Position numbers and translations under genes: made by a program. Positions 1-32,857 of a stretch of DNA of 64,000 nucleotides are shown here, one piece after another; position 1 is the first letter of the stretch, and the number at the start of each line of letters is the position of its first letter. Source of the stretch: Escherichia coli (GTDB lineage Bacteria > Pseudomonadota > Gammaproteobacteria > Enterobacterales > Enterobacteriaceae); the NCBI RefSeq assembly GCF_003018235.1, contig NZ_CP027437.1; one strand, given 5' to 3'. Under the pieces are notes generated by a model. It saw nothing but the letters and a program-made list of their open reading frames with translations. It was not told the origin of the DNA and searched no databases.

Positions 1-873
1 CCACCGGGTCATGTACATACGACTGCGTGTTCAGCCCGCCGCTCAGTTTCAGCGGATCCTGGCTTAAATACTGCCCCGTTCCGGCATCGTAGTAGCGGTG
101 TAAATTATACCACAGCCCGCTCTCCTCATCCTGCCACTGGCCCATGAAGCCCGCATCACAGCTTTCACGCTCACTGTCCGGCGAGTCGTTTGCTGCCAGC
201 CCCCACAGGCTGCGGTGTTTCGTCCACACCTTCCGCCCGTTTGCGCTGTACATCTCCTGCGGTACACCGTCCGGGCCGGTCACTATCGGGTAAAAATGGC
301 TCCGGTCATCATTCGCCGCCCGACGTTCCTTCGCCAGCAGTTCAAATCCGCCACGGTAGTGCCACTGCTCCCGCAGCGCCGGGCTGCCGTCTGCATACCG
401 CTTCTCGCTCGCCGACAGCGCCATGCCCTGCCACTGGTAGCGCACTTCACTGATGGCCTGTTGATGTCGTTTCCACGTCGCCCAGATAACGCAGCGTTTG
501 GCAGTTCTCCGGCCAAAGGCGTCGTAGCTGTACTGCCATACCTCACCGTCTGGTGTCTTTATCTCGCGCAGACGGTCAAAATCGTCCCAGCGGTAGCGCC
601 ACTCCTGTGGGCGAAAGCCGCGTTTTTGTTCTGTGCGCTTTGTCACCCTGCCGCAGGCGTCGTATTCGTAGCGGCTGTCGCCCGCCTGAGTCACACATTC
701 ACGGCTGTACTGGTGCTGCGACAGAATGCCGTTTATCCGGCTTTCCGCTATCTGCTCGTTTACCGTATAGCGATAGCGTTCTTCCTGCGCCGGGCCGTCG
801 GCGTCCAGCCGCAGTACACTGGTTATCTGGTCGCGGGCATCCTACTGGTAGCGCGTTTCCCGCTCCGTACGCG
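1..873 (-). pseudogene. Orphan rhs core fragment (3' part of Rhs YD-repeat core; no start codon; continues past window start toward its own C-terminal toxin domain)
   Basis: Nucleotides 1-873 are a near-identical direct repeat of 1703-2578 inside the main rhs gene; the reverse complement of the first bases encodes ...LSGGLNTQSYVHDPV, i.e. the start of the DPxG cleavage motif. Homology stops abruptly 38 bp downstream of the putative rhsI stop. Confidence 0.75.
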
Positions 874-910
874 TTTATTAGAAATCAAAAGATACCGATA
901 AAGATTCCCT

Positions 911-1267
911 TCATTTTTTTTCAAGCAACTCCTCATAAAGCCACATAACTAACCATTTACTATTTCTTGAATGTTCTAACATATAATGTCCAGACAAATA
1001 TTTAACAAATTCGCCATCATGAAGAGAAATATTTTTATTCATACTGTCAGAAATTATATTCAGAGTCCCTGACTGTACAAAAATATATCCCGTCATCATT
1101 GTTGTAGGTAAAGACAGCGCAGTTTTGTGAATTTTACTAACAATTCTTGAATTATTTACATTTAAACCAACTGTTAATCTAACATTATCTTCAGTGAGAG
1201 GGATGTCAAAATAATCTGACCACTTATAGATATGAAAGTCACTTAAATTTAGAAAAAACTCTCTCAT
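911..1267 (-). CDS. Putative Rhs immunity protein (RhsI-like), AT-rich
   Basis: Small AT-rich ORF immediately downstream of the rhs toxin C-terminus. Start taken at the internal ATG (MREFFLN...) 20 bp after the rhs stop; the longer ORF in the track (to 1384) overlaps rhs. Confidence 0.55.
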   Translation of the reverse strand: MREFFLNLSDFHIYKWSDYFDIPLTEDNVRLTVGLNVNNSRIVSKIHKTALSLPTTMMTGYIFVQSGTLNIISDSMNKNISLHDGEFVKYLSGHYMLEHSRNSKWLVMWLYEELLEKK

Positions 1268-1286
1268 ATTATTCTCATATAAAAGC

Positions 1287-4200
1287 TTAAGGAAAAATAA
1301 CCCCGTATTCTTCAAACGCAGCTCTAGCCGCTGCTTCAGATGCAGCGTTCTGAGTTCCAGTATTTCCGAAATGATAATGACCACTGTGAGGGGCTATATC
1401 AGTACCGAATCGTCCATTCACAACAGTAGCCTCTCCCGCCGCAAGAACTGGTTTTCCATTTGCAATTGCAGCATGAGAAATTTCTATCCCATCTTGCATT
1501 TTTGGTGCAGTTAATAGAGTGCCATCCTCAAGAAGGACATACTTTATATCGCCAGCTTCATCAGCCATATCTGCAAAACGTGGGTCTGATGGTTTCATCG
1601 GTTCAACACCGGCCTCTCTCATTGCAGCCAATTCCTCATCTAAATGTTCCGGTAATTGATTTTTAAACGGGCACCCAATAAAACCCCACGGATCACACCA
1701 GCCCACCGGGTCATGCACATACGACTGCGTGTTCATCCCGCCGCTCAGTTTCAGCGGGTCCTGGCTTAAATACTGCCCCGTTCCGGCATCGTAGTAGCGG
1801 TGTAAATTATACCACAGCCCGCTCTCCTCATCCCGCCACTGGCCCATGAAGCCCGCATCACAGCTTTCACGCTCACTGTCCGGCGAGTCGTTTGCTGCCG
1901 GAAGTCCCCACAGGCTGCGGTGTTTCGTCCACACCTTCTGGCCGTTCGCGCTGTACATCTCCTGTGGTGCGCCGTCCGGGCCGGTCACTATCGGGTAAAA
2001 ATGGCTCCGGTCATCATTCGCCGCCCGGCTTTCCTTTGCCAGCAGTTCAAACCCGTCACGGTAATGCCACTGTTCCCGTAGCGCCGGGCTGCCGTCTGCG
2101 TAGCACTTCTCACTGATGGAAAGCGCCATGCCCTGCCACTGGTAGCGCATTTCACTGATGGCGTGGCCTTGCTGCTTCCATGCAGCACGGATAACGCAGC
2201 GTTTTGCGGTTCTCCGGCCAAAGGCGTCGTAGCTGTACTGCCATACCTCACCGTCTGGTGTCTTTATCTCGCGCAGACGGTCAAAATCGTCCCAGCGGTA
2301 GCGCCACTCCTGTGGGCGAAAGCCGCGTTTTTGTTCTGTGCGCTTTGTCACCCTGCCGCAGGCGTCGTATTCGTAGCGGCTGTCGCCCGCCTGAGTCACA
2401 CATTCACGGCTGTACTGGTGCTGCGACAGAATGCCGTTTATCCGGCTTTCCGCTATCTGCTCGTTTACCGTATAGCGGTAGCGTTCTTCCTGCGCCGGGC
2501 CACCGGCGTCCAGCCGCAGTACGCTGGTTATCTGGTCGCGGGCATCGTACTGGTAGCGCGTTTCCCGCTCCGTGCGCGTTTTCGACCACACTTCATGCCC
2601 GGTCAGGCGGCCCGATTTATCCCACGCGTAGCGGTGTTCGCCCAGCGGTCGCCACGACGCCACGCTCTGGTGACCGCCAGCCAGCCGCTCTGCGCCCTGT
2701 TTTTGCCATGCCGTACGCCCGCAGGCGTCATATCCCTGCTCCTGCATATACACCGCATGGTTCAGCGGCGTCTGTGCCAGCCAGCTTTCCTCATTCTCCG
2801 GGCGGTAACGTCTGCTTTTTTCCAGCCCGGCGGGGGAATGACCGAAGTCCATCCGGTGGCCGTTGCTGCGGTAGCCCATGAGAATGCCCGAAGCATCGTA
2901 TTCTCTCTGTGTTTCCCCGTCCGGCGTTGTGGTGCCCGCCAGCCGTCCGGCTTCGTCGTAACGGTACTCCGTGCGCTGGCCATCCTGCTCTTCCGCCACC
3001 AGGCGATGACGTTCGTCCCACTCCAGTTTTACCTCGCTGGTCAGCGTGTAACCTGCTTCACTGGCATCACTGCGCTCATACACCTGCGCGCTCACCATCC
3101 GGTCATAATGGTCGTACTGATAACAGAGTTGCTGATGCTCGCCGCTGATGGTCGTCACCCGGCCATAGCCATCCCGCGCATAGCGCCATACGCTACCGTC
3201 CGGGCGGTGTTTTTCTGCCAGTCGGCCCTGTTCATCACGGATATAGACGGTTCTGCGTCCGGACCAGTCATCCTCCCCGGCCATCTGGCCCGCTGCATCA
3301 TAGTGCAGCCGCCACTGCTGGTTGCCGCTGCGCGTAAGCTGCGTCAGCCTTGCGGCACCGTCGTAGTTGCAGAGTATCCGCTGCCCGCCCGCGTCTTCCA
3401 CTTCCCGCAGCAGGTCAAATGCCCCGTGGCGGTAGCGCGTGGCCTGCCCCATGGCCCCGGTGTGGAGGGCGATTTTGCCTTCACCGTCATAGCGGAAGGT
3501 TTCCACGCCGCCATCGGCCCGGATAACCGCACTCAGTTTCTCATGCGGGTTATCAGCACCGGGGCGGTACTGCCAGTTCATGCTGCGCCCTTCCGCATCC
3601 ACCAGCCCCGTCAGCCGCAGCCAGCGGTCTTCCGTGTAATGGGTCGTGCGGCCTTCAGCATCCGTATGGGAAAGCAGGCCACCGTGGGCGCTGTAGCCCC
3701 ACTGTTCGTGGCTGCCGTCCGGGTATGTCACTTCCTTCAGCAGACCGTCTTCGGTATGACGGTACTGCCATTTTTGCCCGTTCACTTCCCGCCGGATAAG
3801 GTTCCCTTCGGCGTTATAGCTATAAGCTGCCGTGGTGTGATGGTCACGGTAGGCCGTTACCTGGCCGAACTCATCCCGCTGCCATTCACGCTTGCGCCCG
3901 TTCTCGTCCGTTTCGCTCAGGATACGCCCGGCGTAGTCGCGTTTTATCTGTGTGATACGCCCGCCCGGCTGGCGGATACACAGCGGCTGGTCGTATTCGT
4001 TACGCTCCCATTCAGTGATACGCCCCAGCGGGTCACGCTGTTTTTTCAGCAGCCAGGATTCATCGAACCACAGCGTGGTGGTGGCTCCGGTGGCGTCGGT
4101 ATAATCGGTTCTGCGCTCATCAGGGAAGTAGCGGAAGGTGTCGTTATACAGGCCTTCCTGTGTGCCTGTGGCAGTCACCCGGCCTTCATCGTCATAGCGC

Positions 4201-5813
4201 AGGTGGAAGTGCGTCGGGCCATTGTCGCGCCAGGAACTCAGCCAGCCCTGTTCGGTATAGGTATAGTGCAATGCACCATTAAAGCGGGTCTGTACATCAC
4301 GCAGCCGCTGCTCATCGCCGTGGCTGATATAGTCGTAACGCACCAGCTCGCTGCCGTCTGACTCGTCGGTCACACGGAATATCTGCCCCTGCGGGCCACA
4401 CCTCACCCGCAGACTCAGGCCGCTACTGTGGGTTACGTTTGTCAGGTGGCCGATGGCGTTATAGGTGAAGCGAATTTCGTTGCGGTTGCGGTCTTTTATT
4501 ACTGTTAGCCGCAGACGACGTGCGCCGGGGGAGATGGGCGTAAAGATATAACCCAGTTGTGAGTATTCGTCGAAAATAATAGCCCGCTCACGGTTTCCCA
4601 GGAGGCGATAGTGCGGGACAAGCAGGTTACGGCTACTGTATGGTGCCTGCTCCGTGGAGTAGGCCGGACATAGCCCCTCAGCATCAAAGTAGGTGACGTT
4701 TTTCCCGTTGCTATCGAACTCCAGAAACTGCGACCAGTTACACAACCAGCGACTGCCCAGCAAACCACTAACCGGATGTCGGCCTGTATAAGCACGTTTC
4801 AGCGTCAGCGGTAAAATATGCGAATAGTTGAAATCAGTTCGGTAATCCAGATATTCACCCGTTCCGGTATCCACCGGATCGCTGAACCCCTGACTGATAC
4901 GCTCATTGGCGGCTCTGTTTAACTGCTTTGCTCCCCATAGAGCTGTTAACACCTCCAGACTTGATACAACAGATTGTTCCAGTACCGTCATATCTGCATT
5001 AATCGGCCCATACTGTCCGGTTGTCTTATCAGCCGTGATGGTTTTACATCCTTCCTGAATAACTGCCGAGCAGGTAATTTTATGGCCCTTACGCGCCAGC
5101 GGCAGGCTGTTGACGGAAATAATTTTGCTCCCTTCCACTATCTGCGGAGGAGGACTGCCCGGATCCTTACTACATTCAACCGGATCAGTGACGCGAGCTA
5201 CCGCTTTTCCTTCAAAAAAAACATTAGGTGAGCCTTCTACAATCTGCCCGGTTTCAGATGCCCAGCGGGAACCAATTACCATCGCTGCACCACCGACAAA
5301 TCCACCAGCTAATCCCCCGGCCCCGGCAGCAACGGTGGCAGCAAGCACACCCAATGCGGCGCCCCCTGTAGCGACAACCAGAGCCCCCACTGCAATCCCT
5401 ACGATAAGTCCACCGATTAACCCACCAATAGCACCCAGAAAGGAATTGTTATGAACAATGTGATGACCCACACACGCCGGTATATCTGTTGGGCCGGAAA
5501 CAGCGTGATCTTTACCCCAGGTATCCATGAACCAGTCACCTGCTTTGGTGCCCAGCCATCCCCCCAGCATCCCGCCAGCCAGTCCGGCAATCAAAGGGCC
5601 TCCAAATCCTGCAACAGCTTTGGCTATTCCGGCTGCACAGGTATTTGCTGCGGCGGCTGCCAGTCCCACCTTTGCCGTTGCTCCCACCATGCTGACAGCC
5701 ATTATTCCAGTACTGGCAATATGTCCTGTGGTAGCAATACTCTCCACTGTTTCGGCATTACTGTCCCGTTGGTCCAGCTCCGCTAACTTCTCCTGCGCGC
5801 TTTTTTCCGTCAT
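1287..5813 (-). CDS. Rhs-family T6SS effector: N-terminal Gly/Ala-rich transmembrane region plus PAAR-like domain, YD-repeat shell, DPxG autoproteolysis motif (VHDPVGWCDPWGF), about 130-aa C-terminal toxin domain of unknown type
   Basis: 1508-aa ORF. Many YD repeats (YDxxGR-type), PAAR-like region (VTDPVECS...KGHKITCSA), C-terminal DPVGWCDPWGF followed by a divergent tail. Preceded by a DUF1795/EagR-like gene. Confidence 0.9.
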   Translation of the reverse strand: MTEKSAQEKLAELDQRDSNAETVESIATTGHIASTGIMAVSMVGATAKVGLAAAAANTCAAGIAKAVAGFGGPLIAGLAGGMLGGWLGTKAGDWFMDTWGKDHAVSGPTDIPACVGHHIVHNNSFLGAIGGLIGGLIVGIAVGALVVATGGAALGVLAATVAAGAGGLAGGFVGGAAMVIGSRWASETGQIVEGSPNVFFEGKAVARVTDPVECSKDPGSPPPQIVEGSKIISVNSLPLARKGHKITCSAVIQEGCKTITADKTTGQYGPINADMTVLEQSVVSSLEVLTALWGAKQLNRAANERISQGFSDPVDTGTGEYLDYRTDFNYSHILPLTLKRAYTGRHPVSGLLGSRWLCNWSQFLEFDSNGKNVTYFDAEGLCPAYSTEQAPYSSRNLLVPHYRLLGNRERAIIFDEYSQLGYIFTPISPGARRLRLTVIKDRNRNEIRFTYNAIGHLTNVTHSSGLSLRVRCGPQGQIFRVTDESDGSELVRYDYISHGDEQRLRDVQTRFNGALHYTYTEQGWLSSWRDNGPTHFHLRYDDEGRVTATGTQEGLYNDTFRYFPDERRTDYTDATGATTTLWFDESWLLKKQRDPLGRITEWERNEYDQPLCIRQPGGRITQIKRDYAGRILSETDENGRKREWQRDEFGQVTAYRDHHTTAAYSYNAEGNLIRREVNGQKWQYRHTEDGLLKEVTYPDGSHEQWGYSAHGGLLSHTDAEGRTTHYTEDRWLRLTGLVDAEGRSMNWQYRPGADNPHEKLSAVIRADGGVETFRYDGEGKIALHTGAMGQATRYRHGAFDLLREVEDAGGQRILCNYDGAARLTQLTRSGNQQWRLHYDAAGQMAGEDDWSGRRTVYIRDEQGRLAEKHRPDGSVWRYARDGYGRVTTISGEHQQLCYQYDHYDRMVSAQVYERSDASEAGYTLTSEVKLEWDERHRLVAEEQDGQRTEYRYDEAGRLAGTTTPDGETQREYDASGILMGYRSNGHRMDFGHSPAGLEKSRRYRPENEESWLAQTPLNHAVYMQEQGYDACGRTAWQKQGAERLAGGHQSVASWRPLGEHRYAWDKSGRLTGHEVWSKTRTERETRYQYDARDQITSVLRLDAGGPAQEERYRYTVNEQIAESRINGILSQHQYSRECVTQAGDSRYEYDACGRVTKRTEQKRGFRPQEWRYRWDDFDRLREIKTPDGEVWQYSYDAFGRRTAKRCVIRAAWKQQGHAISEMRYQWQGMALSISEKCYADGSPALREQWHYRDGFELLAKESRAANDDRSHFYPIVTGPDGAPQEMYSANGQKVWTKHRSLWGLPAANDSPDSERESCDAGFMGQWRDEESGLWYNLHRYYDAGTGQYLSQDPLKLSGGMNTQSYVHDPVGWCDPWGFIGCPFKNQLPEHLDEELAAMREAGVEPMKPSDPRFADMADEAGDIKYVLLEDGTLLTAPKMQDGIEISHAAIANGKPVLAAGEATVVNGRFGTDIAPHSGHYHFGNTGTQNAASEAAARAAFEEYGVIFP

Positions 5814-5843
5814 CTGTTCGTCCTTCCCGCTGAACTGGCTGGG

Positions 5844-6275
5844 TTATTTATCCTGCGGCATTCCAAAACAAAAATTCAATAATGCTCCCCGCATCGCTTT
5901 ACGATCCTCCTCTGCCAGCGCCTGTGTTGAGGAATAGGTCAGCGTCAGTACTTGTCGCTCGTTCAGAATTACCAGCAGCAACTGCTGTATCATCACCCCC
6001 TTGTTATCCCAGCTAAATTCCCAGTATTCCGCCGGGCGCTCCTGTACATGACAGCGTTCTTCGACGGTGAACACCATTTTCGACAGTTCGGTACGGAATT
6101 TCTTTTTCTGCACCGCCAGATAGTCATCAAACTGCGCACCATCCGGCAATATTTCACGGGTAACAACAACATTAGCCCCGGCAATCGCACTTAATACCGG
6201 TGTCAGAATATTCATACTGCTGTCCTGCCAGTTTCCTGGCAGGGTGAAATGTCCTTCATTAATTAGATATTGCAT
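5844..6275 (-). CDS. EagR-like (DUF1795) effector-associated chaperone for the downstream PAAR-Rhs
   Basis: 143 aa; N-terminus MQYLINEGHFTLPGNWQDSSMNIL matches the typical DUF1795 start pattern (recalled). Sits directly upstream of an rhs with an N-terminal TM region. Confidence 0.7.
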   Translation of the reverse strand: MQYLINEGHFTLPGNWQDSSMNILTPVLSAIAGANVVVTREILPDGAQFDDYLAVQKKKFRTELSKMVFTVEERCHVQERPAEYWEFSWDNKGVMIQQLLLVILNERQVLTLTYSSTQALAEEDRKAMRGALLNFCFGMPQDK

Positions 6276-6480
6276 TCTCTTCCCCTGACATTAATTAAAA
6301 AAAATACCATTGATTTAATAATTGAATAACACCAAGATACTTGCATCATGAGTTTATATAGTTTTCCCGCCAACCTATATTTGTTTTTTCACACAAATAA
6401 GAATGTACTTACACACAAACCAATAAATCCACTGGTATCTAAAATAATTATTCTTTACATTATCTTAATCACAGATTTTA

Positions 6481-6930
6481 CTAATGGTTTCTCAAAAAAA
6501 TCTTTGCGTAATTAGGATTATTTAACTCTAAGTTCACCACATTAGATTTAAAATTATAAAAATCCGCATCTCTATCATCCTCTGTAACCTTTGAATCAAC
6601 CGTCGACCACACATTCGTATAAAAACTACACTCATGCTTTCCTGGCGTAATATGGTAATCTCTGGCAATTTGTACATAGTCCCCCACCTTCATTTCTCCG
6701 GGAGAGATTTTGTAATATTCCCCTTGTCCAAGGTTGTACATTACACCTGAATAACGAATCTTCTTGCCATCACATTCAACACTCAATTGATCGGAGCTCG
6801 GATATTTACCTTGAGATATGTACCTGACATCTATATATAATGGAATTTCACCATTATTTTTAACACGTACAGCAACATAAACGTCATCTTCTTTGGGTAT
6901 AACATCCACAATAACCATGTAACATGGCAT
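6481..6930 (-). CDS. Hypothetical protein downstream of vgrG; candidate immunity/partner for the VgrG C-terminal domain
   Basis: AT-rich ORF starting just after the vgrG stop; no obvious signal peptide; start codon uncertain (ATG at 6930 or 6918). Confidence 0.4.
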   Translation of the reverse strand: MPCYMVIVDVIPKEDDVYVAVRVKNNGEIPLYIDVRYISQGKYPSSDQLSVECDGKKIRYSGVMYNLGQGEYYKISPGEMKVGDYVQIARDYHITPGKHECSFYTNVWSTVDSKVTEDDRDADFYNFKSNVVNLELNNPNYAKIFLRNH

Positions 6931-6946
6931 CCATAAATTAAGCCTT

Positions 6947-9784
6947 TTATTCAAAATAACGTTCAAAGTTATAAGCACTTTGTAATGAGGCCCGCTTACC
7001 CTTTTTAGCTAGATCTATACCACCACTTCTTAAACCCTCATCAAAACTTCCGAGCACATCATAAAAATGTGACATTTCATGAATCAAAGTTATGACTTGT
7101 GAATCACGACCGTCCAGGGGATCGTCAATAAATTTATTTCCAAGATAAATGGTATGGGTATAATCTCCATCATTAACTCTTCCATGAACATTAACATCCA
7201 TAAATTCAAAATTTTGGTACTTAATCCCCTCATTAATTTCAATTTCTTTTTTTACAGCGTTTAAAATTTTATTCCTGGCTGCCTCATCATCAACACCGAA
7301 TATATTTCCAAAACGCTCTTTATCGTTATCATTCCAACGAATCAACTCATCTCTTGCTGATTTTAATTTTTTACGCTGCGCTTCAAGAACAAGTTTCATA
7401 TCATTTTCACTGATCCTTTTCTCCTCTATCATTTCATAAACAGGATTTCCATAATTATCTGTAAGAGGTTTTCCATTATATCCAATTATAGCTACTCCAT
7501 TACCCGGCCCTGATGTAGAAAAATCTCTAATTGTATTAATTTTATATTTACCATTTGCGTCACTACCGCCAGGATTCAGTGCCAAGTGAGTAGGTCCATC
7601 AAGGATGATAGTGCCGTCTGAATTCATCACGAGAGTGCTGCTTCCCACAGTCAACGTAATGTTCGTTGCCGCAGTCAAATGAATGGCACCAGATTTTGAT
7701 GTGATGGTAATATCCCCTTCGACAGTCTCCGTGCAGGTTCCCGTTTCTACCGTCACTTCGCGTTTACCCGTTTTCACCGTCAGAGACTGGTCACCTTCTG
7801 TCACAGTAATATCCCGGTTGCCTTTGATGGTTTCGGTGTGCTTACCCTCAACAAATTCTGTGCGATCGATTTTTACCGTAGATGTTTCGTTATGAATGAT
7901 GGTTTTCGTCCGATCTGCCTTTACCGTGTGTGTTTCGTTATTTTTCACGACGGTATTCAGATCTTTCTCCGCAAGAAACCTCACTTCTTCCGCACCTGTT
8001 TTATCGTCAAAGCGCAGCATGTTTCCGTTGGTCGGCCCGCCATACAGCGAGTGGCTGAATATCCCGCTCTGCGACGCCATGCCCGGCAATCCCCACGGCG
8101 GCATGGTGTCCTGGTTATAGGTGCGCCCTACAATGATCGGTAAATCCGGGTCGCCGTTTTTGAAATCCACCAGCACTTCCTGGCCGATGCGCGGGATCTG
8201 GATCATCCCGAATCCTTTCCCCGCCCACGGGTAGCTGACGCGGATCCAGCAGGAGCTGTTTTCGTCATTCTTTCCGTAACGGTCCCAGCCAAACTGGACC
8301 TTCACCCGGCCATATTTATCCGTCCAGATTTCCTGCCCCGCAGGGCCGGTGACGATGGCGCTCTGCGGGCCTTTGGTGTGGGGTTTGCTCAGGGTTCGCT
8401 GTGGGCGGTAAACTTCGCTGGTGGGATGCAGTTCAAACGTGGTGACATAGGTAAAATGCTGCTCCTGACCGCTGTGCTGCGCATTATCCCGTAAAAACAG
8501 CGTGGTCTGTACCAGTAGGTATTCCTGGTTGACCTCTGCCGTTGGATGATTCATCAGCGTAAAGGTGTAACCCGTCATGAGGGTGCGGATATGACCTGCC
8601 CCATGTGCCCGGCTGCCGGGGCTGCGCTGCGCTTCCATACGAATGCGCGTCAGCATCTCGCCTTCGCCCGTAGTGAAGTAATCACCAGGCCATTCATAAT
8701 GCTCGTATTCAGCATGACCGGTATCACGCGGACTAGCCACGGTACTTTTAAGCAGCGAACGAGGCTTCATAAAATCAAAATCGTCCATCACCCACTTTCC
8801 AGTACGTAGCCTCTCACTGGCCGTAATGGTGTGGATAAATTCCTTGTCCAGTTTCAGACCTTCCTGGTGCCACTCCACCAGTGGCGAGTCAGGGCACGCT
8901 TTATGACCATTGATGGCATCCGCCAGCACCAGCGTATGGCTGTTCTCGCTGTGCTCAAACCACCAGTAAATTCCCCACTCCTGCATCAGGCGCTGGATGA
9001 AATCAAAATCCGTTTCACCGTACTGTACCTGCCAGGCACGAGGTGGATAATTTTCCACCAGCCGTTTTTCCACCGGAAAGGAATATTCATCCAGTACTTC
9101 ATCGAGAATATCCACCACGGTTTTATTCTGGAACGCCTTGTAGTCGCTGGTATGGGTCAGCAGCTTCAGCCATGGCTCAATGCGTAATTCATACGTTACC
9201 GAACGGCCCTCATGGCCGACCACCCGCGCTGCCGTCACCAGCCCGCTGATATACCGTTTTTCGCCACCGTCCAGTTCAATACTGACGCACAGGTCTTTGC
9301 CCACCATGGGCTGAAGCGGCAGGTTGGCAGCGGGAGAAACGTAACCCAGGTTCAGGATGTCCGGCGTTTTAAGCTGTACTGTGTAGGAAAACAGATTCCC
9401 AAGTCCTTCCGAACCATTCATGCCTGCAAACAAAAGCAACTGCGGCGGCACCGCGCTACCACTTACTGTGACGTTATGCGCCCCCGGACCACCGGCTGCA
9501 AGCGACGACGCCGCATCCTGAACTGTACCAGCCATATCCGAGATCCCTACTGCAGCAGCGGCAGCCTGCGCAGCAGTTACTGCAGCTTTAACCAGACCTG
9601 ACGGTTCCGGCAACGCACCAAACAGGTCCGCCGCGGCCTGTTCTGCCATCTCCTCGGCGGCACCAGATACATCGGTTACGGCTGAACTGGCGCTTACAGC
9701 ACTACTTTCTCCGGCTATCGGTGGCGTGGAGATAGCTGGCCCACCGTTACTGCCAGATTTATTACTCGTAGATACAAAACTCAT
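6947..9784 (-). CDS. vgrG: VgrG (TssI) spike protein, 'evolved' type, with an AT-rich C-terminal extension containing an HExxH motif
   Basis: 945 aa. gp27-like region ([25 protein letters not shown]), gp5 OB-fold and beta-helix repeats (VKVQFGWD..., TVKxxR repeats). C-terminal about 180 aa is low GC and contains LIHEMSHF. Good SD (AAAGGA) upstream of the ATG at 9784. Confidence 0.9.
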
Positions 9785-9808
9785 GATATTTATTCCTTTA
9801 ATATCGGA

Positions 9809-11834: not shown

Positions 11835-11863
11835 CGCCGGAGCCGATACCACTGCCCGGCGAA

Positions 11864-23811: not shown

Positions 23812-23872
23812 AATCCTTCATTTCCTTATCAGTCAGCCGACGACCACCTGGGGAGTGGCCCGACGGTACAGT

Positions 23873-24163: not shown

Positions 24164-24165
24164 AC

Positions 24166-24729: not shown

Positions 24730-24741
24730 AAGGATGCTCCA

Positions 24742-26223
24742 TTAATCCGTTTCAAAAATAATCTGTTCATCCTCATCAACACGAATGCGGATTTGCGTGA
24801 TGGCCGTTTTCTCTGTCATCGCCTGCAACCAATAACGGGACAGTTGTGGGAGGATATGTTGTTCGATATAGCCGATGAGCAAACGAGCGCCGGTTTCGTG
24901 CATCGGGCAGCGCGACACAATATGCGTAATCAGTTCATCGCCATACACCAGTGAAACGCCATGCTGCTCCGCCATCCGATCCATCAATCTGCCAAGATGC
25001 AGGCGGGCAATAACACCACGCGCGGTCTCATCCAGCGGTAAATAAGGAATAACCGTCACACGCCCCAGGAAAGCCGCCGGGAAGTGTTTACGTAACTCCG
25101 GCATTAACGCCTCTTTTAGTCCTGCCGAATCAGGCATCAGCGCCGGATCCTTTTCGATATGGCGTTTGTACTCGCTCCAAGTGGTTGCGCCGATGGTGCG
25201 CAGGGTGCCACGCGCCAGCGCCGGTTTCAGCAGGTTGGCAGCATCCCCCGTACCGGATGTACCACCAGCGCCCACCAGCGTGTGAACTTCATCAACAAAA
25301 AGGATTACCGGCTGCGGCGAGCGCGCGGCCTCTTCTAGCAACGCTTTCAGGCGGGATTCAAATTCACCCTTCATGGACGCCCCAGCCAGCAGCGCTCCAA
25401 CATCCAGTGACAGCAACCGCACGTTACGCAGTGAAGGCGGTACTTCCCCCCCGGCAATCGCCAGCGCGAATCCTTCCACCACTGCCGTTTTCCCGACTCC
25501 CGCTTCGCCGGTCAGTAGCGGGTTGTTCTGGCGACGGCGCAGCAGAATATCCGTCATAGTACGGATCTCGTGTTCGCGACCGGTGACCGGATCGATATTG
25601 CCTTCACGGGCCAGCGCAGTCATGTCCTGGCAGTATTTCGCCAGCGCGGATTTGCTTCCGGTTGATTCGCCGGCAAAGACCTGGCTAGCTTCCCCCGGTA
25701 CTGCAGAATTTAAATCCGAGCCGTCATAAGGCATTTCTGTTAATTCAGGAGATGAAGTGATTAAAGACGGAAGAATATCTAATAGTTCATCTACCGGTAG
25801 CTCTGCCAATGGCGCACAAATATTTTTTAACACCCGACACAATTCTGGCGTGGTTAACCAGGCAAGTAATAACCATCCACTACGAATTTTTTTATCGCCA
25901 AAGCGGATACTTGCCAACATCCAGGCTTTTTCAACAGAAAGATCGATATGATGGGAAAAATCGTTAATTACACTCGCTCCGGCAGGCAATATATTCAATT
26001 GCTGAATTAACGCCTTCTCAACATCAGCAGATGTTATTTGATAATGTCGAAGCACATTGTGAATGTCATTCTCTGGTTGTTGTATTAACTGATGCAACCA
26101 ATGCGTCAGTTCGACATAAGGATTAGCGCGTAATTTACAGAACGTCGTCGCAGATTCCAAAGATCTAAACAAAGATTTGGTTAGCTTTCCATACAGTGCA
26201 CTGCGCGAAACAGGAGTGTCCAT
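24742..26223 (-). CDS. clpV: ClpV (TssH) AAA+ ATPase with an apparent in-frame internal deletion (N-domain plus first ATPase domain joined to the C-terminal small domain)
   Basis: 493 aa against about 850-900 expected. Walker A GEAGVGKT and Walker B ILFVDEVH of the first domain run to ...IEKDPAL, joined directly to ...[24 protein letters not shown]...GARLL..., the ClpB/ClpV C-terminal signature. Confidence 0.8.
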
Positions 26224-26555
26224 CTGTTACACCTAATGATGTAAGAACATATAAATGATACATAAACATAACTGTACCGATTAAAACTTCTAATTAATAG
26301 AATTATCAAAAAGGCCGAATGAAACAATGATGCATATCACAGAACACAATGTAATATAGCAGGTAGTATCTTTTTCATGGTGATATTCAATAGAGCAAGC
26401 CAATTTCATACATACCATGAATATATTAAATTGAAAATCGCCACTATATATTTCCGCGAAAACTTATATTGATAAAGTAAATTGATCAGCATTGCTTATC
26501 TAAAAATTTAGAAAACTTATTCTTTTGAAAGAAACATTCTACACAGTGATACACA
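26224..26555. promoter_or_regulatory. AT-rich divergent control region between the clpV operon and the tagH-tssA operon
   Basis: 332 bp, strongly AT-rich, between divergently transcribed T6SS operons; contains a GATC site near 26483. No promoter elements individually mapped. Confidence 0.5.
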
Positions 26556-27470
26556 ATGAAACCAAATATTACGTGGGGACTCCAAAAAATACAGGCGCAC
26601 GGGATCGCCGATAACACAATTTACGCGACTGAAGGAACCCAAATTATCTTCACCGTTACCTCACCCTGGATTCCTGTTTTTGAGGTGAATGATGATGTAA
26701 AGATTGCCCTCAGTCTGACCCGCCACGAAGAAGCATGGTGGATTATCAATCAGTCTACCGAATATTGCTGTACGGTAAACGACCAGATTGTGGAACCTCA
26801 TCACCGTATGCGTCTGAATGAAGGCGATCTGATAGAATGGGGGTTATCTTCATGGTGCCTTGTGCACGGCAATCCATCATCTCCGGACCTGAGCGCAGTA
26901 AATACGACATCGCAGACTGCCACCATGTCGGAAACAATAACCGAATATCTGGATCTGGATTGGTTCAGGCAGCAGCATCTGACATCACAAAATCCATTCG
27001 ATATCATTCCTGTTCATGGAGCCTCCTCCACTGGAGAAGATGCTAAAAAAGAAAATGCCCTGACTCGACTTTATCAGGAATACCGCGAGGCGTTGTTATC
27101 TCCTGAACAAGATCTTCATCGCCATGCTGATCCTTTTCCCTTTAACGAAGAGCCCTCCTCACAGGATCTGGATTCATTGCGTGATCTGGTCACTGAAGCC
27201 GAGACATTGCAGGATATGGTCACTGGCGGGTTAAGCATTGACGCTATTCTCGATGTCCTGGACGCCACCGGCGAAGGGGAAACCGCCTGGCCTGCCGAAA
27301 AGACGCCCCCAGATATCCTGCACCTGCTATCCCCGGAATGCGCACCGGAAACAGCGCATAACACCGTTCTACCCGACCTGACACGCAAAGAGCATCGCAT
27401 CATTGGCATTGACAGCCATTATCGGATAAACCCGGCACAACACGGAGAGATATCTCATGACAAACAATAA
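26556..27470 (+). CDS. T6SS-associated protein, possibly FHA-domain (TagH-like)
   Basis: 304 aa; first gene of the plus-strand operon; N-terminal region has a weak FHA-like pattern; C-terminal half is acidic and low complexity. Confidence 0.4.
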   Translation: MKPNITWGLQKIQAHGIADNTIYATEGTQIIFTVTSPWIPVFEVNDDVKIALSLTRHEEAWWIINQSTEYCCTVNDQIVEPHHRMRLNEGDLIEWGLSSWCLVHGNPSSPDLSAVNTTSQTATMSETITEYLDLDWFRQQHLTSQNPFDIIPVHGASSTGEDAKKENALTRLYQEYREALLSPEQDLHRHADPFPFNEEPSSQDLDSLRDLVTEAETLQDMVTGGLSIDAILDVLDATGEGETAWPAEKTPPDILHLLSPECAPETAHNTVLPDLTRKEHRIIGIDSHYRINPAQHGEISHDKQ

Positions 27471-28287
27471 CGAGCTACCGGCTACCCTGTCGGCGCTGCT
27501 GCGGGATTATTCCGTGGCGGAGGGCATTCAAATGGCAGAGCAGCAGGTCAGGATGCACCCGGCGCAGGCCTCCCGCCGCCACAGCTTATTTCAGTTATTG
27601 TGCGTGGCAGGCTACTGGTCGCGGGCACTGCAACAGATCCAGCTATGCGCCCGGATGGACGCAAATTATACCCGCGAAGCGCAGGTATTTGGCGAGCTGA
27701 TACGCTGTGAGATATACCGCCACGCCTGCTTTCAGGGAGAACAGCGGCCCGATTTTATTCTCCCGCCGCCCGCCTGGATGGAGGATCTGCTGACCGCCCT
27801 CGCCTGTAACGCTCGTGGTGAAGCGCAGGAAGCTGACGCCCACCGCAGCCGCGCACTTGAGGCCATAACAGATACTGCAGGGCAGTGGAATGGCGGCGCA
27901 TTTGACTGGATTAGCGACAGCGACTCCCGTACCGGTCCGGTACTCGAACTCATCGCGGGCGGAGTATATATCTGGCTGCCGTTTTCACAAATCTGTTCGC
28001 TAAAATCGCCGCGGCCTGCGCATCTGACCGATTTGATCTGGAAACCCGTCAACGTCACACTGAATAATGGCGACACACACAGTGCCTGGCTGTTTTCCCG
28101 CTACAGCGGCTCTGAAAAGGCTGCCGACTCCCTGCGTCTGTGCCGGGAAACGGTCTGGCAGGACGGGCCGGGAGAGACTCTGGTACAGGCGCTGGGTCAG
28201 AGGGTGTGGCTCACCGGTCACGGCGATATCAGCCTGCTGGATTTGTCCACCTGTACCTTTAACACCGCTGAAGGAAGCGACGCGTGA
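27457..28287 (+). CDS. tagJ: TagJ (ImpE-family) T6SS accessory protein
   Basis: 276 aa; LFQLLCVAGYWSRALQQIQL, FDWISDSDSRTGPVLELIAGGVYIWLP and SRYSGSE match conserved ImpE/TagJ blocks (recalled). Confidence 0.8.
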   Translation: MTNNNELPATLSALLRDYSVAEGIQMAEQQVRMHPAQASRRHSLFQLLCVAGYWSRALQQIQLCARMDANYTREAQVFGELIRCEIYRHACFQGEQRPDFILPPPAWMEDLLTALACNARGEAQEADAHRSRALEAITDTAGQWNGGAFDWISDSDSRTGPVLELIAGGVYIWLPFSQICSLKSPRPAHLTDLIWKPVNVTLNNGDTHSAWLFSRYSGSEKAADSLRLCRETVWQDGPGETLVQALGQRVWLTGHGDISLLDLSTCTFNTAEGSDA

Positions 28288-28778
28288 GCGCTTCCCGCCA
28301 GCGTCCGGGCAATCACCTGCTGCCCACGCTGTTTGACCGCCTGTGTGATGATGCCCCAAACCAGAAACGCGACCACGATATCAGCGTCAGCCCGGTTCAG
28401 CTTAAGGAGATCATTCGCCGGGATTTGTCATTTCTGCTCAACACCGTCAGCCATGAAGATGATATTGATGCTGCACGTTATCCGGACGCGGCAGCGTCCG
28501 TACTGAACTACGGCCTGCCGCCACTGGCGGGCAGCTTTCTGTATGAACACAAGTGGGACGATATTCGCAGGGCCATTTTGCGTACCATCATCCGGTTTGA
28601 ACCCCGGCTGAAAGCGTCCACCCTGCAAATCATCCCACTTCAGGATGAGCGCCACCAGAGCGGCCATAACACATTACAGTTTGAAATTCGCGGCGAGATC
28701 CTCACGCAGCCCTACCCGATGGCATTCCGGGTACGCAGCGCGCTGGATATGGAACAGAGCCGCATTACGTTTTTTTAA
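28284..28778 (+). CDS. tssE: TssE (gp25-like) baseplate protein
   Basis: 164 aa; the PTLFDRL motif is typical of TssE. Confidence 0.88.
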   Translation: MSASRQRPGNHLLPTLFDRLCDDAPNQKRDHDISVSPVQLKEIIRRDLSFLLNTVSHEDDIDAARYPDAAASVLNYGLPPLAGSFLYEHKWDDIRRAILRTIIRFEPRLKASTLQIIPLQDERHQSGHNTLQFEIRGEILTQPYPMAFRVRSALDMEQSRITFF

Positions 28779-28793
28779 TTCAGAGAGAAACCG

Positions 28794-30677
28794 ATGGATC
28801 CACGGCTACTGGAATACTACAACCGCGAACTGAGCTATCTGCGGGAAACGGGAGCCGAATTTGCCGCCCGTCATCCTAAAGTCGCCGCCCGACTGGGTAT
28901 GCAGGGAACGGATATTGCCGATCCGTATGTGGAGCGAATGGTCGAGGCCTTCAGCTTCCTGACCGCCCGCACGCAGCTAAAAATTGACGCTGAATTCCCC
29001 CGTTTCACCCAGCGTCTGCTGGAAGTGGTCAGCCCCAATTACGTCACACCCACGCCCTCAATGAGCGTGGCGCAGCTTCATCCCGATCCGGAAGAAGGCG
29101 ATCTGGCGAAGGGATTCACCGTCCCGCGCAACACGGCCTTTTTTTCCGCCATTCCGGAAGGCGAAAGTACCGCCTGCCAGTTTCGTAGCAGCCAGAATGT
29201 GACGCTGTGGCCACTTGCCATCGAAGAGGTGCGGCTGACCGCCGCGCCGCCGGATATGCCTGCCCTGCACCGCTACCTGCCAGCCAACATTCACGTCGCT
29301 GGTGCGCTGCGTATTACCCTGCGCACCTTTGGTGAACTGACGTTCAGTCAGCTTGCAGGGCTGAACAAGCTGCCATTTTATCTCTGCGGCGAGGAGCGCA
29401 CGGCCTCACACCTGTTCGAACTACTGCATACCAGCGCCATCGCGAGCCTGGCTGGCATTCCGGGGCATTTTGACGGCGCACTGGATGTGAATCTGAAACA
29501 GCCCGTTATGTACGAAGGCCTGGATCCGGATCAGGGACTGTTGCCGCTGGCGTGGAATGTGTTTCACGGCCATAACCTGCTACATGAATATTTTACCTGT
29601 CCGGAACGCTTCTTTTTTTTCACCCCGACAGGCCTGTCTGCCGGGTTACAGAAAATTAACGGCGGCGTGGCGGAGATTGTTATCCTGCTGAACCGCCTGC
29701 CGCCGGACTGGCTGATCCACCAGACAAACGCGGCACAGTTCAGCCTGTTCTGTACCCCAGTTATCAACCTGTTTCCCCGCGTCGCCGCCCGGATCGATGT
29801 CACGCACAGCACGACGGAACAGCATCTGGTGGTGGACAGAACCCATCCGCTGGATTATGAGGTGTTCTCGGTCCAGGAAGTGGAAGGGCTGGAAACTGAC
29901 ACCACACGGAAGATGGCCTTTCGCCCGCTCTACCACACCCGCAATAATGATGAAGGCAATCACGGACGTTATTTTTCCCTGCGCCGGGAGCCGCGCCGGT
30001 TGTCGGAAAATGCCCGCCGCTATGGCACCCGCACCTCCTATACAGGATCAGAAGTGTTCCTGTCGCTGGTTGACCAGTATGAAGCGCCGTACCCGGAAAA
30101 TCTGCGCCATATCACCATCACGGCTATGGTCACCAACCGCGATCTGCCCTGTCTTATTGCCCGCAATGGACGGGACGATCTGACCGTGGATGCGGCCATC
30201 CCGGTGGCGGGCGTGGGGCTTATCCGTCCGCCGCGTCCGCCGCAGCCTCCGCTGGCTGAACGTGAAATGGCCTGGCGGTTGATCCGCCAGTTATCCTTTA
30301 ACTATCTGCCGCTGGCCGATCTGGATCACCGTACCGGTGGTCAGGCGCTGCGCGATCTGCTTAACCTGTTTATTCCGGCGCATGACAGTCCGCAGTCGCG
30401 CCAGGTGCGCAGCCTGATTGGCTGCAACACCACCCCGGTCACCCGCCGTCTGCCCGGTTCCGGGCTGCTGGTCTATGGGCGCGGCGTCAGTTGTGAACTG
30501 ACCGTGGATGAGGAGGGGTTCTCCGGTATCAGTCCGTATCTGTTCGGTCTGGTGTTGGAGCACTATATCGCCCGTCATGTTTCCATTAATACCTTCTCGC
30601 AGATGACGCTGCACAGCATGCAGCGCGGCAAAATTATGACCTGGCCTGCCAGGGCGGGACAGCGGGGAAGCGTATGA
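28794..30677 (+). CDS. tssF: TssF baseplate protein
   Basis: 627 aa; MDPRLLEYYNRELSYLRETGAEFAARHPKVAARLG is a typical TssF N-terminus. Confidence 0.92.
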   Translation: MDPRLLEYYNRELSYLRETGAEFAARHPKVAARLGMQGTDIADPYVERMVEAFSFLTARTQLKIDAEFPRFTQRLLEVVSPNYVTPTPSMSVAQLHPDPEEGDLAKGFTVPRNTAFFSAIPEGESTACQFRSSQNVTLWPLAIEEVRLTAAPPDMPALHRYLPANIHVAGALRITLRTFGELTFSQLAGLNKLPFYLCGEERTASHLFELLHTSAIASLAGIPGHFDGALDVNLKQPVMYEGLDPDQGLLPLAWNVFHGHNLLHEYFTCPERFFFFTPTGLSAGLQKINGGVAEIVILLNRLPPDWLIHQTNAAQFSLFCTPVINLFPRVAARIDVTHSTTEQHLVVDRTHPLDYEVFSVQEVEGLETDTTRKMAFRPLYHTRNNDEGNHGRYFSLRREPRRLSENARRYGTRTSYTGSEVFLSLVDQYEAPYPENLRHITITAMVTNRDLPCLIARNGRDDLTVDAAIPVAGVGLIRPPRPPQPPLAEREMAWRLIRQLSFNYLPLADLDHRTGGQALRDLLNLFIPAHDSPQSRQVRSLIGCNTTPVTRRLPGSGLLVYGRGVSCELTVDEEGFSGISPYLFGLVLEHYIARHVSINTFSQMTLHSMQRGKIMTWPARAGQRGSV

Positions 30678-31669
30678 GCGACGATTTCACTCAGGCGCAG
30701 GAAACCCCCTGGCGTTACGGTTTTCTGAACCTGATGCGCCGCGTGGATGTGCAGTTGTGTACCGTTCCGGCAGGCAACACCTGGCAACCACGGATGGAAA
30801 AATTTCGCCTCGGACAAACTCCCGCGCTGACCTTTGCGCCACGGGAAATCGCCAGTGTGAGCTGGCAGGAAGAGCGGCTGCACATCAGTTTGTACAGTCT
30901 CGGGCTGTGGGGGCCGAACGGTCCACTGCCGCTGCACTACACCGAACTGGCGCGCAACCGGACTGAAAGCCGAAGAGACCCGACGCTAACCCGTTTTTCT
31001 GATCTTTTTCATCACCGCTGGCTGACGCAGTTTTACCAGGCATGGCGCAGCGCCCAGTCCGCTGGGGGCGGTCTGGATAAACCACAACATGACCGTTTTG
31101 CCTTTTATATCGCCAGCCTCAGCGGGCAGGATTTGCGGGAGAGCGCCGACAGCCCGTTGCCGGATCACGCTCGCCTGGCGGCATCGGCCCATCTGGTGCG
31201 TGAGTCCCGCAATCCGGACGGTCTGGCCACCACGCTGGCGCACTATTTCGGTGTACCTTTCCGGATACAGGAGTATGTCCTGCACTGGATAGCCGTGGCG
31301 GACGATGAGATCACCCGGCTGGGGATGCCAGCCCCCTCTTCCGTTATTGGCAACGGTGCACTCATCGGCCAGGCCGTGCCGGACATGCAGTATAAGTTCC
31401 GGCTGGTTATCGGCCCGCTGACGCTGGAGGATTACCGACGTTTTCTGCCTGGCGGCAATAACCTGCCAGTCCTGACAGAACTGGTCCGCGCCTTTAGCGG
31501 TTTTGAATACTGCTGGGAAATTGAGCTACAGCTAAAGCCCCACGCCGCCCCTCCGGCTGTTACCGGTGGTTCGTACCAACTGGGCTGGACCGCATGGGCG
31601 GGTAAAGCCATGCACGAAAACCCGGTGACGGGCATGATTTTCGAACCAGAACACTACCTGGCGCACTGA
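30674..31669 (+). CDS. tssG: TssG baseplate protein
   Basis: 331 aa; overlaps the tssF stop; typical TssG sequence. Confidence 0.9.
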   Translation: MSDDFTQAQETPWRYGFLNLMRRVDVQLCTVPAGNTWQPRMEKFRLGQTPALTFAPREIASVSWQEERLHISLYSLGLWGPNGPLPLHYTELARNRTESRRDPTLTRFSDLFHHRWLTQFYQAWRSAQSAGGGLDKPQHDRFAFYIASLSGQDLRESADSPLPDHARLAASAHLVRESRNPDGLATTLAHYFGVPFRIQEYVLHWIAVADDEITRLGMPAPSSVIGNGALIGQAVPDMQYKFRLVIGPLTLEDYRRFLPGGNNLPVLTELVRAFSGFEYCWEIELQLKPHAAPPAVTGGSYQLGWTAWAGKAMHENPVTGMIFEPEHYLAH

Positions 31670-31679
31670 GGATAATTTA

Positions 31680-32726
31680 ATGGATACATCCCTGTCTGAC
31701 CCAATTTCGGCAGAATGCCCCTGCGGCCCGGATCTGGAGTACGATCCGGAATACCTGCTACTGTTCACGCGCGCCGCACCGCGTGAAGAAGCGCAATACG
31801 GCGATTTTGTCAGTACGCCGGAAACCATTAACTGGGCGGAGCTTGAGCGGGATGCCTGCCGACTGCTGACGCGCAGCAAAGATATCCGCATTCTGGTTGT
31901 CCTGCTGCGCTGCCGTATCCAGCAGGCCGGTGCCAGGGGACTGGCGGAGGCGCTCGCGCTGCTGGAAACGTTGTGCGCCACGTACCCGAACGCCATCCAT
32001 CCTCAACTGCTCGCGACTGAAGATATCACCGCCGAAGAGGCGGCAGTGGCACGTAGTAACGCCCTGGCGGCATTGCTGGACCATGAAGGCGTAATAGCGG
32101 ATATTCGTGGCATTACACTGTCAAACAATGCTGCCATACGCCTTCAGGTACGGGATGTGGAGCGTTCGCTGTCTGCATCACGCCCGGCGGATGCGCTGGC
32201 ACCAGAATCGGTACGCCAGCAACTGGCCGACCTGGAGGCGCGCGGCACACTGCCGCTGGATGCCTTTCGCCAGGCCGCAGAGACCACTGAGCGGCTGCAA
32301 CGCCATGCGCTTGAAACGCTGAATGACCAGGCACCGAACCTATCCCGTCTGACACAATTGCTGGCCCTGTTGCCGGGAGCGATACGGACCACCACGCCGG
32401 AGATCCTGCCACAACCAGTGGCTGAACAGCCGGAGAGCACCACCATCGTTCATACTGAAGAGATATCATCAGAGCAGATTGCGCTACCGGTGCATATCGC
32501 GGAGGAAATATCACCGATGTCCGGCGCAGAACCCCGGCAGATCCGCGACCGGAACGACGCGCTGGAACGCCTGCGTGTCATCCGTCGCTGGTTTGAGCAC
32601 AGCGAACCGAGCAGCCCGACCATTCCTTTGCTGCGCCAGGCAGAACGCCTGGTCGGAAAACGCTTCTCGGAGGTAATAAATGAAATTCCAGTAGAACTGC
32701 TGGAAAAATGGGATGCGCTGGAGTAA
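31680..32726 (+). CDS. tssA: TssA-family protein (ImpA N-terminal domain)
   Basis: 348 aa; the N-terminal AECPCGPDLEYDPEY motif is typical of ImpA_N; shorter than many TssA proteins. Confidence 0.75.
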   Translation: MDTSLSDPISAECPCGPDLEYDPEYLLLFTRAAPREEAQYGDFVSTPETINWAELERDACRLLTRSKDIRILVVLLRCRIQQAGARGLAEALALLETLCATYPNAIHPQLLATEDITAEEAAVARSNALAALLDHEGVIADIRGITLSNNAAIRLQVRDVERSLSASRPADALAPESVRQQLADLEARGTLPLDAFRQAAETTERLQRHALETLNDQAPNLSRLTQLLALLPGAIRTTTPEILPQPVAEQPESTTIVHTEEISSEQIALPVHIAEEISPMSGAEPRQIRDRNDALERLRVIRRWFEHSEPSSPTIPLLRQAERLVGKRFSEVINEIPVELLEKWDALE

Positions 32727-32732
32727 CAGAAG

Positions 32733-32765
32733 TGGCCAGAATTTATATTATCTGGCCATTTTTTA
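32733..32765 (+). terminator. Rho-independent terminator after tssA
   Basis: Hairpin TGGCCAGA-atttatatta-TCTGGCCA followed by a T-run. Confidence 0.7.
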
Positions 32766-32857
32766 AATCATATTCGTTTTACTTGCGGAGTGAAAAATTC
32801 TCGCTTCACCAAAACGACGAAAGCCCGAATCAGTAATGATTCGGGCTTTCTGAATAT

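Follow-up and report, generated by a model that had tools for sequence, protein, structure and literature searches.

A type VI secretion cluster of the SPI-6 kind beside aspV in Escherichia coli and its probable long residence at that site

Introduction

Islands encoding type VI secretion systems (T6SS) next to the tRNA-Asp gene aspV are established in both Escherichia coli, where the island is of subtype i1, and Salmonella, where they are known as Salmonella pathogenicity islands 6 and 20 (SPI-6 and SPI-20). SPI-6, located at aspV, belongs to subtype i3, and its effectors include Tae4, Tlde1 and Rhs proteins (2025 review, PMC12288458); aspV itself has been described as an insertion hotspot (PMC2907695). 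The subject of this report is a T6SS gene cluster that ends directly beside aspV in a 64,000-nucleotide stretch of an E. coli genome (assembly GCF_003018235.1, contig NZ_CP027437.1). This whole stretch is referred to as the window, and positions are counted from its first letter.

The i1 island of E. coli has been described as OI-7 in enterohaemorrhagic E. coli (EHEC), as PAI-I/AGI-1 in extraintestinal pathogenic E. coli (ExPEC) and as the third T6SS of enteroaggregative E. coli (EAEC) 042. A survey of 131,610 E. coli genomes screened i1, i2 and i4b only, as the subclasses present in the species, and searches of an open-access library gave no account of an i3 system in this species or of any island at the paralogous tRNA-Asp gene aspU. 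The prototype of subtype i3 is the H1-T6SS of Pseudomonas aeruginosa, and TagJ is an accessory protein typical of this clade. A T6SS island at aspV is textbook knowledge in E. coli and Salmonella, and the finding as it was first stated, in a preliminary description of the window, is an ordinary one. The points of interest are the subtype of the cluster and the time for which it has occupied its site.

Identity and subtype of the cluster

Positions 1-32726 of the window are filled with T6SS genes, comprising 13 core genes together with accessory, effector and immunity genes. TssA-TssM are all encoded together (13 of 13), as in canonical T6SS (T6SSi), and the cluster lies directly 3' of aspV, beside dnaQ and rnhA, as the preliminary description had placed it. 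The core proteins were identified by NCBIfam, PDB or Pfam searches, except that TssF was recognised through its relatives and through the RefSeq annotation of strain MEI003, which is 99.6% identical and in which RefSeq annotates the matching T6SS genes. Hcp and TagF scored slightly under the curated NCBIfam cutoffs, and TssH fell under its cutoff owing to an internal deletion.

The sheath protein TssC scored 800 bits against PDB 5n8n and 372 bits against Vibrio cholerae VipB. The entry 5n8n carries the database name "EvpB family type VI secretion protein" and is presumably the P. aeruginosa H1 sheath. The window also encodes TagJ, with 168 bits to HsiE1 (PDB 4uqx), and its TssK is distant from the TssK of the EAEC Sci-1 system (86 bits). 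A Sci-1-like (i2) identity was considered and is ruled out by the TssK and TssC scores. On the evidence of TssC, TagJ and TssK, the presence of Tae4 and Tlde1, and the review of SPI-6, the cluster is filed as i3. Judged from these pairwise scores and from its gene content, it is a SPI-6-type T6SS and the E. coli counterpart of Salmonella SPI-6. Systems of this kind are rare and under-described in E. coli; the T6SS kind itself is known and is routinely annotated by automatic pipelines.

The junction with aspV

The tRNA-Asp(GUC) gene aspV was located by ARAGORN and Rfam at 32858-32934 on the minus strand, and its 3' end therefore points toward the T6SS cluster. The stop codon of tssA, at 32726, lies 131 bp from that end. 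The spacer holds a hairpin with a T-run 3' of tssA (32733-32765, plus strand), a likely terminator by reading of the sequence that is kept in Escherichia lineages, and the aspV terminator region (32812-32857, minus strand), in which a hairpin of 14 pairs at 32819-32850 is followed by a T-rich tail. The tssA hairpin was not flagged by the terminator scan, its loop being longer than 8 nt. The aspV terminator region is common to genomes in which the aspV-yafV site is empty, and the 46 bp adjoining aspV are the same in the window and in those genomes. Had the cluster been inserted site-specifically into the 3' end of the tRNA gene, the native terminator would not be expected beside aspV, so its retention argues against such an event. 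To the right of aspV lie dnaQ (33067-33798, minus strand) and rnhA, and farther on the rrnH operon with aspU (41077-41153).

The preliminary description reported these two terminator structures as the whole of the junction and saw neither an integrase nor a repeat of the tRNA 3' end in the window, and both observations hold. When the 3' end of tRNA-Asp was searched for with a 23-nt probe at up to 3 mismatches, the window yielded aspV and aspU only, and the entire MEI003 island aspV only; a repeat search likewise showed no second copy of this end. The annotation of MEI003 lists neither an integrase nor a transposase in the stretch matching the window, and the tyrosine integrase expected beside the tRNA of a classical island was found in degraded form in the aspU copy of the cluster only.

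The extent first given, 1-32857, is to be corrected in one respect, in that position 1 is the edge of the window and not a boundary of the island. In MEI003 the island extends about 2.3 kb more, through Rhs fragments and a frameshifted ISAs1, to yafV, giving a total of about 36.3 kb. Judging from MEI003, the distal boundary that the preliminary description had proposed to look for would be at yafV, and the probe gave no repeat of the aspV 3' end in the MEI003 island.

Distribution among relatives and divergence

Relatives of the cluster were found by a TssF peptide-pattern scan of species-representative genomes. Salmonella was missed in that scan, and the Salmonella contig was obtained from a plasmid collection, as a mislabelled record. 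PLSDB lists NZ_CP134663.1, OX345321.1 and OX345449.1 as plasmids, although one of these records is an E. coli chromosome of 4.9 Mb and the other two are contigs of 16 kb from Salmonella chromosomes.

An aspV-dnaQ-adjacent cluster without integrase is present in three divergent Escherichia lineages (L005-L007) and in Citrobacter amalonaticus (L010). On the Salmonella enterica contig (L038, tRNA-Asp at 6560-6636), tagK through tssA are followed by aspV and then by dnaQ through yafC, and window positions 26551-32722 and 32858-41089 are collinear with it, a comparison that is limited to the tagK-tssA half of the cluster. Across the Escherichia lineages the succession of tssA, hairpin, spacer, terminator and aspV aligns base for base, and the substitutions in the terminator stem are paired. 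The tssA-aspV spacer is longer in C. amalonaticus and S. enterica than in the window.

Synonymous divergence (dS) between the window and S. enterica was 0.70-1.73 for T6SS genes and 0.80-3.2 for the core flank; against C. amalonaticus the values were 0.87-1.21 and 0.49-2.35. T6SS dS is therefore comparable to that of the core flank in both comparisons, with both near saturation. Within Escherichia, T6SS dS is about 1.5-2.5 times that of the core. Comparable dS suggests that the cluster and the housekeeping genes beside it have been diverging at aspV over roughly equal times, and, together with the arrangement common to Escherichia, C. amalonaticus and S. enterica, it points to a locus that is ancestral at this position. 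The cluster, a predicted i3 SPI-6-type T6SS, is probably an old occupant of the slot that is present by descent, with no recent tRNA-targeted integration. The integration at a tRNA hotspot that the preliminary description implied does not agree with the shared integrase-free junction, the comparable dS and the retained aspV terminator.

Alleles of the aspV-yafV slot

All genome counts refer to 5426 complete E. coli genomes. The window-type junction of aspV with tssA occurs in 76 of them (1.4%), at least 80% of the i3 core in 112, and i3 sequence at 90% identity or more, deletion remnants included, in about 177. The i1 core is present at 80% coverage or more in 2030 genomes, and an empty site, in which aspV is followed by 98 bp and then yafV, is found in 757. 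Four or more alleles of the slot exist in E. coli, among them the empty site, the i1 island, the i3 island and the yafT-ykfM-yafU-yafF interval of K-12 (slot allele loci: L036 9302-9477, L003 3009-5419 and L037 908-35457). Because the empty site differs from the window type in the last yafV codons and in the 52 bp next to them, the island cannot be read as cleanly inserted into such a site.

In K-12, homology to the window ends 7 bp beyond aspV, and the genes between aspV and yafV are yafT-ykfM-yafU-yafF. This interval equals the i1 island of strain SE11 with a single deletion of 31,282 bp, SE11 positions 908-3082 being joined to 34365-35457. The deletion runs from within the yafU homologue to within the yafV-proximal ISAs1, the stump of which is yafF. 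The genes ykfM and yafU are part of the i1 island in the form that it has in phylogroup A/B1, and tblastn searches with K-12 YkfM and YafU gave no matches in the i3 loci or in the O157 island. As read from this alignment, K-12 has lost a T6SS island at aspV, but it is the i1 one. The preliminary description was thus right that K-12 holds different genes in the slot, yet these genes are the remnant of an i1 T6SS island and not unrelated to T6SS. It had also named an ancestral locus subsequently lost from K-12 as the outcome that would change its interpretation; this is largely what was found, in that the locus appears ancestral, although the island that K-12 lost was i1 and not i3.

Decayed forms of the i3 cluster were also observed. 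In ETEC1738 (L001 33541-37238) the cluster is cut by IS66 in tssC, and several genomes hold i3 remnants of just tssA with vgrG or rhs. An ImpA-only remnant of SPI-6, which these E. coli remnants resemble, has been reported in Salmonella Javiana.

A sister copy at aspU

The i3 cluster is situated at aspU, a tRNA-Asp gene identical to aspV at the end of rrnH, in 89 genomes, JNE151685 being one of them. In this configuration (JNE151685 locus L035, 34827-39403) aspU is followed by a P4-family integrase that is in fragments and broken up by an IS3, then by higA, by tssA through Rhs, and by an ISAs1 that truncates dkgB. The integrase carries the NCBIfam PRK09692 domain, lies directly beside the tRNA gene and is degraded; the tRNA-Asp 3'-end probe, with up to 3 mismatches allowed, gave no extra copy in the aspU-linked island of JNE151685. 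Genomes with the aspU-linked cluster carry an empty aspV-yafV site. Because the aspU copy stands beside integrase remnants while the aspV site is empty, the i3 cluster can be moved by a tRNA-Asp integrase. The aspV and aspU alleles are a mosaic with 87-99.6% nucleotide identity and a median dS of about 0.23, whereas the single core gene covered by both loci has a dS of 0.05.

Weighing of alternative explanations

The simplest alternative is that the window contains the well-known E. coli aspV island (EHEC OI-7, ExPEC PAI-I/AGI-1, "T6SS-2", subtype i1). This island occupies the same slot, has Rhs and ISAs1 at the yafV end and bears the matching literature label of a T6SS at aspV. Nucleotide likeness to i1 is, however, limited to weak, short stretches in tssH and vgrG, amounting to 74 bp in tssH by megablast and to 67-70% identity across 263-497 bp by blastn. 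The i1 island has TagH, VasI, VasL and a long TssA, whereas the window has TagJ, TagK, TagF and a short TssA; the window also lacks yafT, and its junction is at +46 from aspV, not at +7. Megablast and gene content rule out the usual i1 identity, and this explanation can be practically dismissed. A classical island is the second alternative, in which a tRNA-Asp integrase would have inserted the cluster fairly recently at aspV in an ancestral E. coli, with later deletion of the integrase and the attachment-site repeats. The P4-type integrase beside the tRNA in the 89 genomes with an aspU copy, the clean empty aspV-yafV sites in 757 genomes, the atypical GC content at third codon positions (GC3) and the literature description of aspV as an insertion hotspot (PMC2907695) would all fit such an origin. 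Yet neither the window nor the full MEI003 island has an integrase or a tRNA 3'-end repeat, including at the distal boundary, and 46 bp of native aspV terminator separate the tRNA from the cluster. The integrase-free junction is, moreover, shared with Escherichia lineages at core dS of 0.1-0.4, and the integrase-free arrangement with Citrobacter and Salmonella, where T6SS dS is about equal to that of the core. Recent integration at aspV is thus regarded as unlikely.

Introgression is a more serious alternative, which we hold to be possible although less probable than long residence. In this case the aspV i3 allele would have been lost early in E. coli proper, and cryptic Escherichia clades would have been the source from which a few lineages regained it, through homologous recombination in dnaQ-aspV on one side and towards yafV on the other. 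The low frequency of the allele (1.4%) would be explained, as would the fact that tagK-tssA resembles Escherichia sp. MOD1-EC7003 (92-95% nucleotide identity) more closely than it does the other i3 allele of E. coli (87-95%), and the excess of T6SS dS over core dS within Escherichia. Against it, the core genes that flank the cluster are of an ordinary E. coli type, 98% identical to K-12, and an old balanced polymorphism would explain the pattern equally well. Long residence by descent, the preferred explanation, faces several difficulties of its own. The dS values against Salmonella and Citrobacter are near saturation, which makes equal age approximate only. GC3 of the baseplate genes is 0.63-0.68, well above the 0.35-0.55 of the flanking core, a contrast that one would not expect after very long residence and that agrees with a foreign source at some depth. 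Other sites are occupied by close relatives, in Citrobacter sp. R56 beside cbl-nac-tRNA-Asn (L011 12887-16537) and in Enterobacter sp. kpr-6 beside bglA-gcvP (L008 12896-19448), which indicates that the cluster moved during evolution at the family level. Finally, the two E. coli i3 alleles are mosaic and 4-5 times more diverged than the core, and for this reason the data do not discriminate between vertical retention of the allele in this strain and its homologous re-import out of a different Escherichia lineage.

Gene content of the cluster

The left part of the cluster is transcribed from the minus strand and begins, at the window edge, with the 3' part of an orphan Rhs fragment (1-694) that matches an RHS repeat domain coding sequence in MEI003 (L002 11609-12694), the island continuing past the edge; window 1-874 duplicates 1684-2581 at 94%. 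A small open reading frame (ORF) downstream of the Rhs gene (911-1267), hypothetical in MEI003 and without an NCBIfam match, is by its position a putative immunity gene. The PAAR-Rhs effector of 1508 aa (1287-5813) has NCBIfam matches for YD repeats, RHS core, Rhs-associated core and PAAR domain. No recognised family was found for its C-terminal toxin, a Pfam search with the last 437 aa yielding RHS repeats only. The adjoining DcrB-family protein (5844-6275; Pfam DcrB, E=1e-26) may serve as a chaperone or adaptor of the Rhs protein. VgrG (TssI) is encoded at 6947-9784 (945 aa; NCBIfam TssI/VgrG 552 bits, Pfam Phage_GPD and Gp5), and its C-terminal extension, aa 819-944, is an Aspzincin_M35-like metallopeptidase (Pfam E=1.8e-5). 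VgrG of the aspU-type allele has 738 aa, and the MEI003 copy is annotated as truncated. Just 3' of vgrG is a hypothetical ORF without family match (6481-6978), a possible immunity gene, and on the other side are two further ORFs (9809-10180 and 10177-10917), also without family match and hypothetical in MEI003; all three were taken from the ORF list, and all the features from 1 to 10917 are on the minus strand.

The minus-strand genes continue with a TagF-domain protein (11103-11867; NCBIfam TagF 38.3 bits, cutoff 41.2, and so named by RefSeq in MEI003) and TssM (11864-15730; NCBIfam 1059 bits). Between tssM and tssL lies a Tlde1-domain effector gene (16503-16871), the domain being detected by Pfam (Tlde1_dom, E=4.8e-12); a PDB search with this protein gave no match. 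The ORF downstream of it (16058-16513) is a putative immunity gene by position. TssL (16963-18279; NCBIfam) is a long form with an OmpA-like peptidoglycan-binding domain and is followed in coordinate order by TssK (18276-19619; 279 bits to the TssK of PDB 5y0e), the lipoprotein TssJ (19623-20156; NCBIfam 125 bits) and Hcp, or TssD (20224-20709; NCBIfam TssD 57.9 bits, cutoff 58.9, and Hcp according to RefSeq in MEI003). The Tai4 immunity gene (20821-21192), named from RefSeq, adjoins the gene of the Tae4 amidase effector (21189-21674), which has 316 bits and about 84% identity to PDB 4j30. The database name of 4j30 is only "Putative cytoplasmic protein", and we take it to be S. Typhimurium Tae4. 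The sheath proteins TssC (21727-23241) and TssB (23266-23811; NCBIfam 190 bits) come next, then two hypothetical ORFs (23873-24729; MEI003 annotation, with no family match for 24166-24729) and TssH/ClpV (24742-26223), still on the minus strand.

The plus strand encodes TagK (26556-27470; NCBIfam 552 bits), TagJ (27457-28287), the baseplate proteins TssE, TssF and TssG (28284-31669; NCBIfam, RefSeq annotation and TssF relatives) and TssA (31680-32726), a short ImpA-family form of 348 aa recognised by the N-terminal domain of PDB TssA 6hs5 and by RefSeq annotation. ARAGORN reported a 94-nt "tRNA-His" within tssF (30460-30553), which has no Rfam tRNA match and is most likely a false positive; the same call is made in tssF of an Escherichia sp. 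(L007).

Outside the cluster, gloB (35083-35838) has an unusually low GC content of 0.40 and a GC3 of 0.35, its neighbours having a GC content of about 0.50. ETEC1738 has a full Flag-2 lateral-flagella cluster beyond yafL (L001 1-25977), and in MEI003, SE11 and JNE151685 this region holds an flhA stub only.

Deletion in clpV

Alignment to MEI003 revealed an in-frame deletion of 1152 bp in tssH/clpV, which leaves a product of 493 aa instead of 877 aa and a score of 577 bits (cutoff 885). The deletion is bounded by 15 bp direct repeats, two copies of TCAGCGCCGGATCCT, with the junction at 25137-25151. About 384 residues of ClpV are gone (roughly aa 359-746), so that D1 lacks its last part and the D2 nucleotide-binding module, with its Walker A motif, is missing entirely. 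The window thus lacks an intact ClpV/TssH with two AAA+ modules, which bears on the function of the strain and not on the family membership of the cluster. With the second ATPase module lost, recycling of the sheath, and hence the efficiency of firing, is probably impaired in this strain. The deletion junction was found in none of the 5426 complete genomes. E. coli 64A:C, which has a TssF 100% identical to that of the window and is 99.3-99.5% identical overall, has an intact tssH.

Proposed function and significance

By family membership the cluster is expected to be an antibacterial T6SS. TssA-M, with the accessory proteins TagF, TagJ and TagK, would form a contractile sheath and tube apparatus that fires Hcp and VgrG carrying antibacterial toxins. 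The predicted toxins are the Tae4 amidase, the Tlde1 LD-transpeptidase-like enzyme, the metallopeptidase-like C-terminus of VgrG and the PAAR-Rhs protein with its DcrB-type helper, and a putative immunity gene follows each toxin gene. The aspV-yafV slot is hypervariable, with the i3 cluster as its probable old occupant; most E. coli now have in it the unrelated i1 island, deletion remnants of that island, as in K-12, or nothing. Alleles are presumably exchanged by homologous recombination through the conserved flanks, and the sister copy would have been mobilised to the identical tRNA gene aspU by the P4-type integrase that is now degraded.

A broader proposal, for and against which we find the case evenly balanced, is that E. 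coli has an overlooked fourth T6SS subclass, i3, orthologous to SPI-6 and ancestral at aspV. About 3% of complete genomes would still have it, either without an integrase at aspV or, after capture by an integrase, at aspU, and the i1 island and the K-12 "yaf" genes would be later replacements and debris. Surveys that do not include i3 would miss or misclassify these roughly 3% of complete genomes. The slot offers a clean case of alternative T6SS alleles, with ancestral i3, replacing i1, precise deletion remnants and the empty site, and strains with arsenals of Tae4, Tlde1 and Rhs may differ in gut competition. T6SS biology is unchanged by these findings.

Comparison with described systems

Islands inserted at tRNA genes by P4-type integrases resemble the window cluster in that they adjoin a tRNA gene, are atypical in composition and are missing from many conspecifics, and the sister copy at aspU does have an integrase. 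The window copy differs from them in having no integrase or attachment-site repeats, in keeping the tRNA terminator and in a junction that is conserved across genera. The i1 island of E. coli occupies the aspV-yafV slot as the window cluster does and likewise ends towards yafV with VgrG, Rhs and ISAs1; on that side the junction is common to both for 24 bp beyond the yafV stop. It nevertheless consists of unrelated DNA with another subtype and other accessory genes, starts 7 bp after aspV with yafT, and is much the commoner of the two (2030 of 5426 genomes against 76 with the window-type junction).

The P. aeruginosa H1-T6SS is similar in its sheath (TssC, 800 bits to PDB 5n8n), in having TagJ, of which HsiE1 is the homologue, and in having TagF. 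It differs in its effectors and in Fha, PpkA, PppA and TagQRST, none of which is annotated in the MEI003 cluster.

The closest likeness is to Salmonella SPI-6, although there are differences. The distal end of the island, as it stands in the complete E. coli genome nearest to the window, consists of Rhs fragments and ISAs1 leading into yafV, whereas SPI-6 has a saf/tcf fimbrial part. The VgrG of the window bears a metallopeptidase-like extension, its ClpV is internally deleted, and the tssA-aspV spacer is 131 bp as against about 320 bp in Salmonella. The order and orientation of tagK-tagJ-tssE-tssF-tssG-tssA, aspV and dnaQ are nonetheless collinear in S. enterica SV10192, and in both species the tRNA gene is without an integrase. 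TssF has 90% protein identity, Tae4 has about 84% identity to PDB 4j30, presumably the S. Typhimurium enzyme, and the Tlde1 and Rhs effector types are shared with SPI-6.

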